A DNA stretch of 13,309 nucleotides from a virus, in the UHGV virus genome UHGV-0148168. One strand, given 5' to 3'. The first letter of the stretch is position 1. Each line of letters begins with the position of its first letter. The translations under genes and the position numbers were made by a program. The notes beneath the pieces are model-generated. The model was given only the letters and a program-made list of their open reading frames with translations. It ran no database searches and was not told where the DNA came from. Below, piece after piece: positions 3,882 to 13,309 of this stretch.

Positions 3882-3934
3882 TCATTTTTTCCATAGGCAT
3901 CATTATATTTTCCTCACTGGTTAAAGATAGAGTA

Positions 3935-3958
3935 ATTATAACACAATAAATTTAGGCA
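3935..3958 (-). promoter_or_regulatory. Candidate promoter for uvsX: extended -10 TGTTATAAT (3943..3935) with an upstream MotA-box-like TGCCTAA (3958..3952)
   Basis: Minus strand reads TGCCTAAATTTATTGTGTTATAAT about 50 nt before the uvsX ATG: a perfect TATAAT with a TGn extension, and a TGCTT-like element near -30. uvsX is a middle-mode gene in T4 (established knowledge). Confidence 0.35.
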
Positions 3959-4801
3959 TTAATCAACTGCTATTGGATGAATAGCATTAAACTTATGAAA
4001 TGCTTCTGATTTTTCTTTACGCGAAACACACATGCGAAGAACCTTTAATGGTTCATCTTCTTCACCCAACGATTTTCGTTTTTCAATATTAGAAGTTTTC
4101 CAACGAGCTTGCTCTGGAAACTCTCTATTGATTTGCTCAAGCGCTCTATTATGTTTAGAATTACTACGAATTGAACTACATCCACCGGGAGCGTGTGATT
4201 TTCCAGATACAACTAGATATTTGAACAAGGCCAAATGCGGATAACCTTGATTAATTAAATTGAGAAATGCATACATATCTTCGCATAAATCAATTTTTCC
4301 ATACCCAATTTGTTCTGTCGTAAGTTTTCCGAGGTCATACCATGTATTCGTGAATCCATATGAGTTTTCACGATAATTACCCCAAGATGAAGTAATTTTA
4401 AAAATTGGTAGACGAGCATGACCGTGATAATACCCGCAATCCATGGCATCTTCAACATATTGAATCAATTCATAGAACTGTTCACGAGTTAATTGATTAA
4501 TTTTATCTACGCGCCGTTTATCGTCTCTCTTTCGTATTGAACTCATACGAATAGTAGTATCATCATCAATCATCCATATTCGTTGACCTGCATACATATC
4601 AGTAATTGCTTTACGAGTACCGGAAATTCCATTAACATCATCAGGAATAGTTACAATTTTAGCTCTAGACCCATAAGCATCATAATAAGCTTTTTCTTCG
4701 TGTTCACGCACTACAATATGGGGTTCATAATCAGTCGGAAACATATCAAGGGCAGAAACTGCCCCTACACGCTGATAACTTGGAATTACGAATTGAATCA
4801 T
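3959..4801 (-). CDS. Putative DNA-modifying glycosyltransferase of GT-A type, 280 aa, at the locus where T4 carries beta-glucosyltransferase
   Basis: N-terminal FVIPSYQR followed about 75 residues later by WMIDDD (DxD) is the GT-A fold signature. T4 beta-gt is 351 aa and GT-B, and does not resemble this. Placement between uvsX and gene 42 suggests a hydroxymethylcytosine glucosylation enzyme such as the T2/T6-type beta-glucosyl-HMC-alpha-glucosyltransferase (uncertain recall). Confidence 0.5.
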   Translation of the reverse strand: MIQFVIPSYQRVGAVSALDMFPTDYEPHIVVREHEEKAYYDAYGSRAKIVTIPDDVNGISGTRKAITDMYAGQRIWMIDDDTTIRMSSIRKRDDKRRVDKINQLTREQFYELIQYVEDAMDCGYYHGHARLPIFKITSSWGNYRENSYGFTNTWYDLGKLTTEQIGYGKIDLCEDMYAFLNLINQGYPHLALFKYLVVSGKSHAPGGCSSIRSNSKHNRALEQINREFPEQARWKTSNIEKRKSLGEEDEPLKVLRMCVSRKEKSEAFHKFNAIHPIAVD

Positions 4802-5439
4802 TTAAGTGCCTTACATTTGTCAAAATGGTATCTTGTCATATTTGGCCCACGTCCTTTTAGTCCGCAATGCGGACATATTTTTTCTATCAAATTATGAGGT
4901 TTTCCTTTACGATTTTTAGACATCGTTTCTTTAATTATTTTAGCTTTTTCTGCGCCAAAAATTTCTTCATAAGTTTTACCAGAATTTTCCTTTGCTCGAT
5001 TTATAATTCCATATGCCTGCTCATTTTTACCATACATTGGATTACCTTCGCCTTTCATTCTTTTAGAATGATCAGGACGCTTGATTCCACGAAAGGCATT
5101 TCCGCACTTATATCTTTCTTCTGGAGATAGTTTTTTACCGTACATTCCATTTAATTTGCCTGGAAAACTTCCTCCCCATGCTTCATTCTTTAAATTATAT
5201 GAATCCGGACAATTAGCAGCATCTAAACAAGTTAAAATAATTTCTTCAACCTGTCTAAACATTGGTCCTTCATATAATATTTCTTTATTAAAGGATTTTA
5301 TTCCATATTTCTTTTTAGCATGTTGCCAAACTACACCCGAACCATCATAATTTGGGTTGTGACCATCATGACTTCCTATATACCACTTTTTAGTTTTAGG
5401 ATGTTTATACTTATAAACATGTGGCACATTTACTTCCAT
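4798..5439 (-). CDS. GIY-YIG family homing endonuclease (Seg-like), 213 aa, with NUMOD-like repeats and a C-terminal CxxC zinc-finger-like motif
   Basis: N-terminal VYKYKHPKTKKWYIGS fits the GIY...YIG motif. Repeated G-x-YGK/basic modules (NGMYGKK, NPMYGKN) and C-terminal CPHCG...DKC. The start overlaps the gene 42 end by 10 nt and the stop overlaps the glycosyltransferase start (ATGA), with no own promoter; typical of free-standing phage homing-endonuclease genes. Confidence 0.7.
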   Translation of the reverse strand: MEVNVPHVYKYKHPKTKKWYIGSHDGHNPNYDGSGVVWQHAKKKYGIKSFNKEILYEGPMFRQVEEIILTCLDAANCPDSYNLKNEAWGGSFPGKLNGMYGKKLSPEERYKCGNAFRGIKRPDHSKRMKGEGNPMYGKNEQAYGIINRAKENSGKTYEEIFGAEKAKIIKETMSKNRKGKPHNLIEKICPHCGLKGRGPNMTRYHFDKCKALK

Positions 5440-6170
5440 TTTCCAGTATAATCCTTTTTAGCAATATGAGTTTCACCAGTGTTCCACCAATGGTCAACTA
5501 AATAAAACTGATTTTCGTACACATGAAGACTTCCAACGTTCCATATAATAGAACCTGCTTTATATTGCCGCGATGGGTCGCCTGCATTCAAATCAGATAC
5601 TAATTTATCTAGTACGTATTTTTGCCATGCATAATCATTACGATAGCCTGCCCAGCAGTCATTGCTTCTCATATTAACAACTGCATTGACTTTCTTATCA
5701 CGAATCAGGTACTGTACTGTATTAGTACACATGAAATCTGACATACCATCTTTATTGTAGTCAAATTGCATGGATGGACGAGTATAAATCATGATACCAC
5801 GTCGAGAATCAGGATTTTGACCAAGTTCAGCTAAACACATATCATACTGGGCATAGTTATCTTCTGACCAGATAGCCCAGCCATAATTCGAGTTAATTTC
5901 ACCTTTAGAAGATGCTACTTGTTGCCAAATCTTCGGTGTTTCACCCGGAATATCTTTAACGAACAAGCTCTTAGATTTATACCATTCAAGTTCACGCTGA
6001 ATGTATTCATCATTAAGAGCGCCAAAAATAAACGGTTCATCTGCTACAAATGATGCGCCAATAATTTCAATAGTTTTAACGCCAGTTTTATCAACTACGA
6101 AATCTTTTTCTTTTAATGCAAGCCCCAAATGAAGACGGATTTCTTCAACTGTCATAGAGTCATTAATCAT
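5430..6170 (-). CDS. 42: Gene 42 dCMP hydroxymethylase (thymidylate-synthase fold), 246 aa
   Basis: Length 246 aa equals T4 gp42. The sequence matches my recollection of T4 dCMP hydroxymethylase, including the FMCTNT region carrying the catalytic cysteine. GAGG Shine-Dalgarno before the ATG. Confidence 0.85.
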   Translation of the reverse strand: MINDSMTVEEIRLHLGLALKEKDFVVDKTGVKTIEIIGASFVADEPFIFGALNDEYIQRELEWYKSKSLFVKDIPGETPKIWQQVASSKGEINSNYGWAIWSEDNYAQYDMCLAELGQNPDSRRGIMIYTRPSMQFDYNKDGMSDFMCTNTVQYLIRDKKVNAVVNMRSNDCWAGYRNDYAWQKYVLDKLVSDLNAGDPSRQYKAGSIIWNVGSLHVYENQFYLVDHWWNTGETHIAKKDYTGKWK

Positions 6171-6177
6171 TTAAACC

Positions 6178-6327
6178 TCAATTGATGCATTCATATTTAA
6201 ATTGTAACAGTAATAAACCCCACCCTATGATAAGAGTTGGAATCATAGCAGGAACTGTTACGCTATAGTATATACTTATTATAACCATCAAGATTAAAAG
6301 CAATGCTGCTATAATTTTGCTTTTCAT
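6178..6327 (-). CDS. Small hydrophobic ORF, 49 aa (MKSKIIAALLLILMVIISIYYSVTVPAMIPTLIIGWGLLLLQFKYECIN), predicted membrane peptide; absent from the supplied ORF track
   Basis: Hand-translated codon by codon from the minus strand. The ATG at 6327..6325 overlaps the imm stop (ATGA); the TGA stop at 6180..6178 forms part of the gene 42 Shine-Dalgarno (TGAGG). It exactly fills the imm-42 gap and has two hydrophobic stretches. Confidence 0.45.
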   Translation of the reverse strand: MKSKIIAALLLILMVIISIYYSVTVPAMIPTLIIGWGLLLLQFKYECIN

Positions 6328-6582: not shown

Positions 6583-6963
6583 TCACTTAGTCAAATTTTT
6601 TACACATGAATTATAAGAATTCACTACATACTCCATCGGAGCATTTTTACCTGTACGCAACTGGTAATTATTAGCCCAATTTGCCCAAAGCACGGCGCAG
6701 TAATTTTCAATTTTTTCTTCGCGTGTAATTACATCTGAATTACGATATGCTTGAGCAGATTCATCTGGACGAATAGCTTCGTCAAAATTCGCCTGCATTT
6801 GTTCTACTGTTTGCTTTGGAGCTTCTTTATAACACTTGACATTAGGATTATAAAATTTGCTTGAACAGTTTACAATTTTTCCTGCATCAGACTGATTTAC
6901 TACCGGTCCTTGAGCTACACAACCAGTAAGACCTAATGCAATAACCAAAATAGCGATTTTCAT
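6583..6963 (-). CDS. Predicted lipoprotein, 126 aa from the ATG at 6963 (the track's 130-aa version starts at a TTG at 6975); function unknown, possibly the imm.1 position
   Basis: MKIAILVIALGLTGC is a classical signal peptide with lipobox L-T-G-C. Four further cysteines in the mature part. GGAG Shine-Dalgarno 6 nt before the ATG. A candidate promoter lies upstream and the gene 43 terminator lies beyond it. Confidence 0.6.
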   Translation of the reverse strand: MKIAILVIALGLTGCVAQGPVVNQSDAGKIVNCSSKFYNPNVKCYKEAPKQTVEQMQANFDEAIRPDESAQAYRNSDVITREEKIENYCAVLWANWANNYQLRTGKNAPMEYVVNSYNSCVKNLTK

Positions 6964-6997
6964 TTCATTCTCCAAATCCGTATTAGTTGATAGTTGT

Positions 6998-11865: not shown

Positions 11866-12552
11866 TTAAAAATCATGGGTAGAATCAGCTTCAAGAGCTA
11901 CTACATAATTCGCATGTTCACCTTCAAATTTAGCAGCGCCTTGTTTACCTTTTGCCCAGAGCAGAAGTTTATAATTTCCTGGTTGCATTTTCATATTTGC
12001 CATATTGATAATGAAATTAAATGTATTTTCACCATCGTAATCACCAAGAGTCAAAGAATATTTAACACGTGTCAAAGCAGAATCTTCTACTTTATTAAAA
12101 CCGTTAATTACGATTTTACCTTCTTTTACCGTGATAGCAATTGTATCAATTTGCAGACCACGAGATACACGCAACAGCTGTTGAAGGTCTTCAGCTTTAA
12201 TTTCGGTAACAACAGATGCTACCGGGAATGGAATTGGTTTATTAGGAGCAACTACTGTACTCGGATCGGCTGCTGGCCAAAAAATTGTTGAGCGTGCATC
12301 AGCAATTTTAATATTTCCATCTTCTGACTGGGAAATTTCTGCATCATCATTAACTAGAGACAGAATACCGAGAAAACCGTTCAAATCGTAAATTGCTACA
12401 TCAAAATCAATAACGTCAGAAATATTTGCTTCCGCATAAGTTGTACCATTAACTGCGCGAGTCATAATAAATTGACCTGATTTAAGCATAATGCCAGAGT
12501 TAATAGTAGCGAAATTTTTCAAAATATTCAGTGTGTCTTTAGATAATTTCAT
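11866..12552 (-). CDS. 45: Gene 45 sliding clamp (PCNA-like processivity factor), 228 aa
   Basis: 228 aa equals T4 gp45 and the N-terminus MKLSKDTLNILKNFATINSG matches my recollection. Sits upstream of 44/62 as in T4. The ATG overlaps the stop of the upstream ORF (ATGA). Confidence 0.9.
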   Translation of the reverse strand: MKLSKDTLNILKNFATINSGIMLKSGQFIMTRAVNGTTYAEANISDVIDFDVAIYDLNGFLGILSLVNDDAEISQSEDGNIKIADARSTIFWPAADPSTVVAPNKPIPFPVASVVTEIKAEDLQQLLRVSRGLQIDTIAITVKEGKIVINGFNKVEDSALTRVKYSLTLGDYDGENTFNFIINMANMKMQPGNYKLLLWAKGKQGAAKFEGEHANYVVALEADSTHDF

Positions 12553-13260
12553 TTCAATTTCCTATTTACATAATAGTTAGACCAGGACCGTACAGCACCC
12601 TGATAAGATTCGTCGTTAAACCCATTAGCTACTGCAATTTTACGAAATTTATTATAACTCGGTTTTCCGTAAGCATGCCATAAAGATTTTAATTCATCTT
12701 CATGTTCAATCCAAGTTCCTCTAGCTTTAGATTTTCTAAATTTTGATTTGAATTCCGGTAAATTATTTCTAACAGTTGCTTGAATTGAAGCTCTCTGTCT
12801 TCTTTCAGCATTATTCCATAACTCTTTTTGAGATTTAGAAATTTTTGATCTTACACTTTCTGAATTCATTATATCACTAAACTTTTTAGCATAACTACAA
12901 TCAAGATATTTCAATTTCATCTTATTTGAAAGTTTAAGCTTTTTCTCATCGGTCCAGTGATTCTTCATTGAATTAGATATTTTGTATTTTACGTCAGAAC
13001 TATGTTTGTAACCTTTACGAATACCAACATAATCGGGCGTGATTTCAGATTGCGAAAGCTTTACAATTTTTCCAGTTAAAACATTTTTATATGTTCCATA
13101 TCCTTTAGCGCCAATTAAAGTATTTTCATCTGCGTATGCTTTATTAAAATATTTTATATTACTTTTTGCTTTAACTTTTAATTGAAAAAATCTTTCCAAT
13201 TTTCTTGGATCTAATATAGTTTCAGCTAAAATTTTGACGGTATATTTAGTGGTTTTAATA
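12549..13260 (-). CDS. 5'-truncated ORF (at least 236 aa in the window) encoding a lysine-rich protein with NUMOD3-like repeats; probable homing-endonuclease DNA-binding region. The N-terminus lies beyond the window.
   Basis: Motifs YKHSSDVKYKISNSMKNHW and SESVRSKISKSQKELW resemble the NUMOD3 module of I-TevI (HKHSDITKSKISEKMKGKK, as I recall it). The ORF runs open into the adapter; the track's first six residues MCIRDS are translated from adapter sequence. The stop overlaps the gene 45 ATG. Confidence 0.5.
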
Positions 13261-13309
13261 CTGTCTCTTATACACATCTGACGCTGCCGACGACTCCTTA
13301 CGTGTAGAT
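13261..13309. other. Synthetic Illumina Nextera adapter (reverse complement of read-1 transposase adapter CTGTCTCTTATACACATCTGACGCTGCCGACGA, 8-nt index CTCCTTAC, start of P5 GTGTAGAT). Not phage sequence.
   Basis: 13261..13293 is an exact match, by eye, to the reverse complement of TCGTCGGCAGCGTCAGATGTGTATAAGAGACAG. The following 8 nt and GTGTAGAT fit the i5 index and P5 tail. Confidence 0.95.

Follow-up and report, generated by a model that had tools for sequence, protein, structure and literature searches.

A Seg-family GIY-YIG homing endonuclease gene between gene 42 and a glucosyltransferase gene of T-even phages, and its linked gene-42 haplotype

The closest described relatives of the gene analysed here, a 213-amino-acid (aa) open reading frame (ORF) in the virus genome UHGV-0148168, are the Seg proteins and I-TevI of phage T4. 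Free-standing endonucleases usually cut at a distance, hundreds of base pairs (bp) from their own gene, and the interval between is co-converted (PMC2988022). For SegF, the target is the upstream gene 56 (Table 1 of PMC2988022). The segF gene lies between 56 and soc, and its start overlaps the end of gene 56 by 11 nucleotides (nt). SegF reportedly cuts the T2 allele a few hundred bp upstream, with co-conversion of the interval, a result said to come from Belle et al. in 2002. I-TevI differs in being encoded by an intron, that of T4 td, and in cutting within ~25 bp of its own insertion site. Here we report that the 213-aa ORF encodes a free-standing homing endonuclease of the GIY-YIG type, belonging to the T4 Seg family, that roughly one in six relatives carries the gene and that its presence is tied to a distinct 3′ end of the neighbouring gene 42. 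We consider it likely that the gene encodes a functional endonuclease that homes by cleaving gene 42.

The whole stretch analysed, hereafter the window, is 13,309 nt long. It is a T-even (Tequatrovirus) segment in which every gene lies on the minus strand in the order found in T4 (45, 44, 62, regA, 43, imm.1, imm, 42.1, 42, the 213-aa ORF, beta-glucosyl-HMC-alpha-glucosyltransferase, uvsX, 40, 41, dmd, sp), and its nearest public genomes are 98-98.6% identical to it across 3900-6200. T4 differs in having no gene in the slot occupied by the ORF, and in T4 it is beta-gt that lies downstream of gene 42. The locus comprises the following features.

4798-5439, minus strand: free-standing homing endonuclease gene, a promoter-less cassette of 213 aa plus stop (ORF list, translation, phrog_314)
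5430-6170, minus strand: gene 42, dCMP hydroxymethylase, 246 aa, the upstream neighbour and presumed target gene (Pfam Thymidylat_synt, PF00303; phrog_160)
3959-4801, minus strand: beta-glucosyl-HMC-alpha-glucosyltransferase gene, 280 aa, the downstream neighbour (phrog_842, 2e-87; Pfam TAGT, 1e-9)
5430-5439, minus strand: 10-nt overlap of the endonuclease ATG (5439-5437) with the 3′ end of gene 42, where termination and reinitiation are probably coupled (sequence)
4798-4801, minus strand: ATGA overlap of the endonuclease TGA (4800-4798) with the glucosyltransferase ATG (4801-4799) (sequence)

Much of this had been anticipated in the sequence-only reading of the same DNA, which named both neighbours correctly, placed the start inside the last codons of gene 42 and the stop on the glucosyltransferase start exactly as we find them, and described a VYKY...KWYIGS motif, G-x-YGK modules and a CxxC...C tail that are all present in the translation. 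The ORF sits between conserved genes in the same orientation, outside any intron or intein, and its ATG lies 7 nt upstream of the gene-42 TAA (5432-5430). The gene-42 product is ~94% identical (aa) to that of other Tequatrovirus contigs. The arrangement resembles that of T4 SegF, which is likewise a free-standing GIY-YIG endonuclease encoded by a promoter-less cassette whose start overlaps an upstream essential gene of nucleotide metabolism. The flanking genes differ, the two proteins share only ~33% identity over 55 residues (E 9e-4) and SegF has no C-terminal CCHC zinc finger.

In PHROGs the protein matches phrog_314, 'homing endonuclease' (1.8e-31). BLASTP against the T4 proteins (NC_000866) recovers SegC (2e-12), SegB (2e-10), SegD (1.5e-9), SegA (4e-8) and SegE (1e-6) in addition to SegF, and all of these matches are confined to the N-terminal 90-130 residues. 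SegA-SegE provide the nearest catalytic-domain sequences (31-36% identity) and share with the protein the Seg signature Y..Y-x9-YIG.H....Y.GSG....A..KYG..F.KEIL...E..(I/V)...YN.K.GG, whereas their C-terminal halves are unrelated to its own. SegG, encoded between 32 and 59, shows no detectable sequence similarity past the fold (E 6.9), and the pairwise similarity to I-TevI is not significant (E 4.3). The protein is orthologous to no T4 seg gene. Several GenBank records already label the ORF homing endonuclease, SegD or GIY-YIG_SegABCDEFG; as a statement of orthology, the 'SegD' label (record LR746311) is ruled out by the 31% identity and by the position of T4 segD between genes 23 and 24.

Database searches returned 69 homologues, and a 49-member alignment of such homologues supplied the family profile and the conservation counts given below. 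SegE_GIY-YIG (PF19835) is found in 17 of the 49 and GIY-YIG (PF01541) in 7. Searching PDB sequences with the single protein was uninformative (the sole result was a meaningless 0.54 match to a sugar-binding protein), so the family profile was needed; among all PDB sequences it matches only the I-TevI catalytic domain (1LN0/1MK0; E=0.01), over the whole length of that domain. The AlphaFold2 model of the protein has a mean pLDDT of 87.8, rising to 93-98 over residues 11-80. In Foldseek the top three PDB entries are the I-TevI catalytic domain (1MK0, 1LN0), with probability 1.0, target-normalised TM scores of 0.62-0.66 and 93-99 aligned columns, and a GIY-YIG restriction enzyme ranks after them. 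I-TevI, the best structural match to the catalytic domain, likewise combines GIY-YIG, linker, zinc-finger and DNA-binding modules. On the strength of the T4 Seg homology, the I-TevI fold match and a family profile that matches only I-TevI chains, we place the ORF in the Seg family, which bears out the earlier call of a free-standing GIY-YIG homing endonuclease between two conserved genes.

From the N to the C terminus, the protein consists of a GIY-YIG nuclease, a NUMOD3-like linker, a stretch of helices and a CCHC zinc finger, laid out as follows.

5164-5439, minus strand: GIY-YIG catalytic domain at the N terminus (residues ~1-92), containing Y9, Y20-I-G22, E65 and N82 (BLASTP, profile, Foldseek)
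5026-5160, minus strand: linker bearing two G-x-x-YGK motifs that resemble NUMOD3, at residues 94-104 and 125-138 (Pfam, family)
4810-4884, minus strand: C-terminal CCHC zinc-finger module (C189, C192, H205, C209), presumed to bind DNA (conservation, model)

In the catalytic domain, nine residues separate V8-Y9-K10 from Y20-I21-G22, within a stretch running from V8-Y-K to W19-Y-I-G-S23. The expected catalytic positions are strongly conserved in the family (Y9 in 47/49, Y20 and G22 in 49/49, E65 in 44/49 and N82 in 49/49), and E65 and N82 align with the catalytic Glu and Asn of I-TevI (E75, N90) and of the T4 Seg proteins. The linker motifs read NGMYGKK (residues 97-103) and GNPMYGKN (132-139). 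NUMOD3 (PF07460), over residues 125-138, is the only Pfam return for the protein itself, at 18.1 bits against a gathering cutoff of 20.4, and is found in 34 of the 49 family members with a best E-value of 4.5e-10. Each of the CCHC ligands, in C189-P-H-C192...H205...C209, is kept in 44 of the 49 homologues, and the AlphaFold2 model predicts a beta-beta-alpha unit there (strands 186-188 and 195-197, helix 199-206). Salmonella phage KM16 (Moonvirus; locus L007, 2464-3138) encodes an HNH homing endonuclease beside pseT with the same C-terminal zinc-finger module, CPHCGKKGAGPNMTRYHFDNCK; the sequences suggest that this DNA-binding module has been exchanged between nuclease families.

The ORF is under purifying selection and is no chance reading frame, as its 69 homologues, its substitution ratio and its mostly synonymous differences show. 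Compared with the orthologue from Klebsiella phages of the genus Jiaodavirus (69% aa identity), the ratio of non-synonymous to synonymous substitution rates (dN/dS) is 0.16 at a synonymous divergence (dS) of 1.5; the corresponding values for gene 42 between Tequatrovirus and Jiaodavirus are 0.20 and 1.24. A codon-by-codon comparison of the window with four more Tequatrovirus copies showed mostly synonymous differences (12 of 12 in the copy farthest from it) and a total of three aa changes. A recent transfer from Klebsiella phages is ruled out by the dS of 1.5 between the two endonuclease versions.

To see how the ORF is distributed, we turned to phage records that match the gene-42 region (507, of which 475 hold both flanks). 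There are 78 filled Tequatrovirus records, in which the ORF is present at 95% identity or more (98-100% overall; at 99% or more in 72 of them), and about 397 empty ones, which align as one uninterrupted piece, 10 nt longer than the deletion construct. The ORF is therefore not universal, and the empty-site alleles that a mobile gene should leave among relatives, which the sequence-only reading had pointed to, are abundant. The insert amounts to 632 bp between TGGAA and ATGATTC. The empty sites of T2, RB3, EO1, U115, JK08, Kha5h and teqskov are scar-free, with the TGA of gene 42 sharing bases with the glucosyltransferase ATG, and the ATGA junction of filled sites copies this gene-42/glucosyltransferase ATGA. 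In Jiaodavirus, the ORF occupies the site in about 13 of 151 records; in the others the same position is empty, with an identical ATGA junction. Among filled loci the ORF is 98.7-99.7% alike, whereas the flanks are only 93-98% alike.

The gene-42/glucosyltransferase junction is a hotspot for endonuclease insertion. In Klebsiella phage Hyena_ER38 (Jiaodavirus; locus L101, 1590-2120), the slot is filled by another endonuclease, of the HNH type and 176 aa long, whose gene again overlaps the end of gene 42; the gene 42 of this phage is of the VVFGY/SRH haplotype (described below). Decayed copies occur as well. In an uncultured T4-like lineage (L072, 3689-3892; also L073 and L074), a 67-aa ORF just past gene 42 is such a copy, of which only the C-terminal zinc-finger part is left. 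Klebsiella phage vB_KpnM_GF (L006, 2489-3227) retains a 36-aa zinc-finger-end remnant beside a gene 42 seemingly cut to 214 aa; in this 'partial genome' record, the loss may be genuine or may stem from the assembly. Filled, decayed and empty sites represent the stages of a homing cycle, namely invasion, decay and loss.

Presence of the endonuclease goes together with a particular 3′ end of gene 42. We aligned eight filled and 11 empty Tequatrovirus loci from uvsX to imm.1, which gave the following identities.

4801-5400 (the ORF): filled versus filled, 98.7-99.7%; ORF absent from empty loci
5401-5700 (gene-42 3′ end): filled versus filled, 96-99.7%; empty versus empty, 94-96%; filled versus empty, 79-85%
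Other flanks: filled versus filled, empty versus empty and filled versus empty, all 93-100%

Outside 5401-5700, the three comparisons lie within about three points of one another in each 100-bp stretch. Differentiation between filled and empty loci is gone beyond 5700, and none was seen on the glucosyltransferase side among the 19 loci. The diverged tract, and the four blocks in which its coding differences lie, are as follows.

5440-5672, minus strand: endonuclease-linked haplotype of the gene-42 3′ end, codons 167-243, presumed to be a co-conversion tract and a cleavage-resistant allele (alignment)
Block A, at the junction: KDYTGKWK (linked), KDYNGEWK (endonuclease-less)
Block B, codons 218-220: ENQ (linked), SRH (endonuclease-less)
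Block C, codons 199-202: DPSR (linked), DSTR (endonuclease-less)
Block D, 5643-5669, minus strand, codons 168-176, the upstream edge of the tract: R-S-N-D-CWAGY (linked), R-S-N-D-VVFGF (endonuclease-less)

The tract differs by ~17% from endonuclease-less relatives. Its divergence is patchy; in block D it extends to the codons for R and S, which differ synonymously. Across the database, identity to the window over 5440-5700 is bimodal: 86 records reach at least 95%, one falls at 90-95% and 417 at 80-90%, and every endonuclease-carrying record belongs to the class at or above 95%.

The same association recurs in Jiaodavirus. Mexia, which carries the endonuclease, has CWAGY and QNQ, whereas the endonuclease-less PKO111, Nispero and Hyena have VVFGY with ERH or SRH; Mexia departs from these relatives at codon 169 and differs from there through the end of the gene. 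The edge of the tract thus falls at codon 168/169, within one codon, in both genera, despite endonuclease versions that diverged anciently. In a survey of 88 further contigs, xWAG(Y/F) was present in 13 of 13 endonuclease-carrying loci of the dCMP-hydroxymethylase type, and VVFG in none of the 13. One such combination, CWAGY with SRH in L104, singles out block D as the constant partner of the endonuclease. For a third contrast between filled and empty sites, in the uncultured lineage L018-L025, no tract could be defined, the empty loci being only 70-90% alike.

We then looked at what the wider lineage is attached to. Nine full-length homologues at 45-71% identity, picked regardless of context, all lie directly 3′ of a Pfam Thymidylat_synt (PF00303) gene of 224-338 aa. 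On the other side their neighbours vary (T4 beta-gt, dCMP deaminase and family A polymerase, a nucleotidyltransferase, a helicase, small unknown ORFs), as do the genome types. The constant partner of this endonuclease lineage is a gene of the thymidylate synthase (TS) family, not the glucosyltransferase gene. I-TevI targets a TS-family gene. Together with the one-sided diverged tract and its recurrent edge, the adjacency in nine of nine cases indicates that the cleavage target probably lies inside gene 42 and not at the junction. On sequence grounds, block D is the best candidate for the cleaved region in endonuclease-less genomes. It is placed between the conserved RSND and RND(179) motifs of an enzyme whose catalytic residues in T4 include Cys148 and Asp179. 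In T4 td, exon 1 ends in ...TATCAACGCTCAGTAGATGTTTTCTTGGGT and exon 2 starts with CTACCGTTTAAT, which reads WYQRSVDVFLG|LPFN across the intron. On gene 42, the place where the td intron is inserted corresponds to codons 175|176, and block D is homologous to td QRSVDVFLG|LPFN. The I-TevI cut, 23-25 nt upstream of the insertion site, aligns with gene-42 codons 167-168, and block D spans the interval from I-TevI cut to intron insertion as aligned on gene 42. This positional coincidence suggests that the target lies in block D. More speculatively, the whole lineage may be specialised on TS-family genes, cutting the R-S-x-D...G active-site-loop sequence that is homologous to the td intron site, near the I-TevI cut, a proposal that we hold only tentatively.

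The sequence-only reading had placed a cleavage site near the junction in relatives that lack the ORF. Such relatives exist, and the position it gave is probably too narrow, as the data point up to ~240 bp into gene 42. A true homing endonuclease that cuts at or near the gene-42/glucosyltransferase junction, with the diverged tract as hitch-hiking donor DNA, nevertheless deserves to be weighed, and we regard it as possible though rather doubtful. The only positions fixed between all eight filled and all 11 empty loci are 5439-5481, by the junction, and EO1-type phages (L002, 1999-2290, and about seven other records) have the linked haplotype in blocks B to D with empty-type sequence at the junction; these phages may be recombinants that lost the endonuclease, or they may represent resistant, endonuclease-free alleles. 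By contrast, homologues keep the TS-family upstream gene while the downstream gene changes, so a junction-spanning site could not be conserved. The lack of differentiation on the glucosyltransferase side, the recurrence of the edge at codon 168/169 in two genera and the cutting at a distance that is usual for characterised free-standing endonucleases (PMC2988022) also argue for a target farther inside gene 42.

Homing by cleavage within gene 42, the reading we favour, would begin with expression. Within the ORF, no sigma-70-like promoter or terminator consensus occurs on the minus strand; upstream of it, no MotA-box middle-promoter pattern was matched on that strand; and the T4 late promoter TATAAATA is found nowhere in the window. 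Given the absence of promoter and terminator consensus within the ORF and a 10-nt overlap that resembles those of segF and segC, read-through expression is plausible. Termination-reinitiation at an overlapped ATG has been proposed for segC, segF, mobA and mobC (PMC2988022). The endonuclease gene would be co-transcribed with gene 42, and ribosomes ending at the gene-42 stop would restart at the ATG 7 nt upstream, giving low-level translation. During mixed infection, the enzyme would make a double-strand break in gene 42 of an endonuclease-less phage, most likely at codons 167-176, around the conserved R-S-N-D-V-V-F-G-F loop (codons 168-176) beside active-site Asp179, ~240 bp from the insertion point. 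Repair off the carrier genome would copy the resistant gene-42 3′ end (5440-5672, ~240 bp) and the 632-bp insert into the recipient. The glucosyltransferase gene should stay expressed, as the 3′ end of the insert remakes the AAATGA junction, with AAGG 8 nt upstream of the ATG, so that translational coupling would be kept. The population pattern fits preferential inheritance: identity stays at 99% over the ORF and tract, against 93-98% for the backgrounds in which they occur. That the enzyme cleaves, precisely where it does so, how it is expressed and that it is inherited preferentially are what we infer from these comparisons.

Several observations weigh against a functional endonuclease that homes through gene 42. 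The Pfam scan gave no match of the protein itself to PF01541 or PF19835 at E<=0.1, so that the GIY-YIG domain proposed in the sequence-only reading, which had named a missing profile match as grounds for its own refutation, is recovered through the homologues and the structure and not directly, and the NCBIfam match to TIGR01453, 'group I intron endonuclease' (1.5e-5), scores 25.1 bits, below the cutoff of 56. The equivalent of I-TevI R27 is missing, with no Arg in residues 23-46. The translation initiation region of the ORF is weak, and RNA folding around the start codon (z-score -0.18) indicates no sequestering hairpin or regulatory RNA structure. T-even phages recombine freely, and a linked cassette could also be spread by ordinary recombination plus a sweep, whether selective or neutral; co-adaptation within gp42 is another way to account for the sharp edge of the tract. 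About eight records, among them EO1, T4_ev151, PD112, CE1, BYEP01, ERS-1 and CJY920, have the linked haplotype without the endonuclease, and xWAGY is also present in many distant endonuclease-less phages; as a result, WAGY is not diagnostic, and block D ranks only as the best candidate target. Finally, we found in the literature no paper describing an endonuclease at the gene-42/glucosyltransferase site or mentioning the protein.

Some of these points would also suit a defunct or domesticated Seg relic, which does not home and which spread through its linkage to gene 42 and ordinary T-even recombination, or which has another role such as DNA binding or regulation. The missing direct Pfam match, the missing R27 and the weak initiation region all lean that way, some T4 endonuclease genes are defective (mobA and I-TevIII are annotated so) and the copies in PYps5T and REP3 differ by ±1 nt in an A6 run, which is either real decay or sequencing error; the SYGD1 copy is probably intact. 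We nonetheless judge a relic improbable. A dN/dS of 0.16 over a dS of 1.5 implies that selection has acted along the full length of the protein, with the catalytic residues Y, Y, E and N among its targets. The segment of I-TevI that bears R27 is an insertion that is missing from the 213-aa protein and from T4 SegA-G alike, and SegA, B, C, E, F and G, which share the R27-less loop, are biochemically active (Table 1 of PMC2988022). Because all T4 Seg proteins, active ones included, are without R27, its absence is a trait of the Seg subfamily and not a sign of inactivation. Moreover, the ORF is 99% identical over backgrounds that differ by 3-7%, and the linked gene-42 tract lies to one side only and ends sharply, which is what co-conversion initiated by a break should produce.

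An ancestral resident gene that was repeatedly deleted, so that the pattern reflects loss and not insertion or mobility, is very improbable: although remnant copies show that loss happens and the two genera are as deeply separated in dS at the endonuclease (1.5) as at gene 42 (1.24), the ~400 empty sites of Tequatrovirus and those of Jiaodavirus share an identical scar-free ATGA junction, filled phages form no clade in the flanking DNA and filled and empty identities are equal outside the tract, the ORF is less diverged than its own flanks, and Hyena_ER38 has an HNH-type endonuclease in the same slot.

The ORF encodes an uncharacterised protein of a known kind and adds another Seg-like selfish gene to a group of phages already renowned for them. 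The linkage analysis and the td-site homology are the parts worth following up. The locus offers an unusually clean natural record of homing, with two discrete gene-42 haplotypes, the endonuclease on one of them only and the same edge in two genera; the record also holds resistant endonuclease-less alleles and decayed copies. That the lineage tracks TS-family genes across unrelated phages is relevant to how the targets of free-standing endonucleases and of mobile introns came to coincide. If the lineage were indeed specialised on such genes, it would be a living 'pre-adapted' free-standing endonuclease of the sort invoked in the collaborative-homing model for the origin of mobile group I introns, and a new marker exclusion would be predicted, in which carriers exclude the gene-42 3′ end of T2, T4 and T6. 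In practice, where therapeutic T-even phages are crossed or combined in cocktails, the gene would skew which hydroxymethylase region is inherited.

Elsewhere in the window, a 242-aa ORF at 12549-13277 (minus strand), directly upstream of gene 45 with a 4-nt overlap, matches phrog_655, 'homing endonuclease' (5e-29). No obvious GIY-YIG or HNH motif was found when these were looked for in this ORF, any upstream portion of which could fall past the end of the window; lying where T4 has rpbA, it could represent another free-standing endonuclease or the remnant of one that lacks the nuclease. The interval between imm.1 and gene 43 (6583-6975 in the window) is variable among relatives, for instance in T2 (L001, 3545-3900). 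There T2, U115 and AV119 have extra small ORFs (237-252 nt and 102-108 nt) that are apparently absent from the window. Within the glucosyltransferase gene, 34-54 nt inside its coding region, a terminator-like hairpin (GGGGCAG-TTT-CTGCCC with a T-rich run) lies at 4747-4767 on the minus strand; it is unchanged among the filled and empty alleles aligned, and the fPS-2 record has a terminator annotated under gene g041c.

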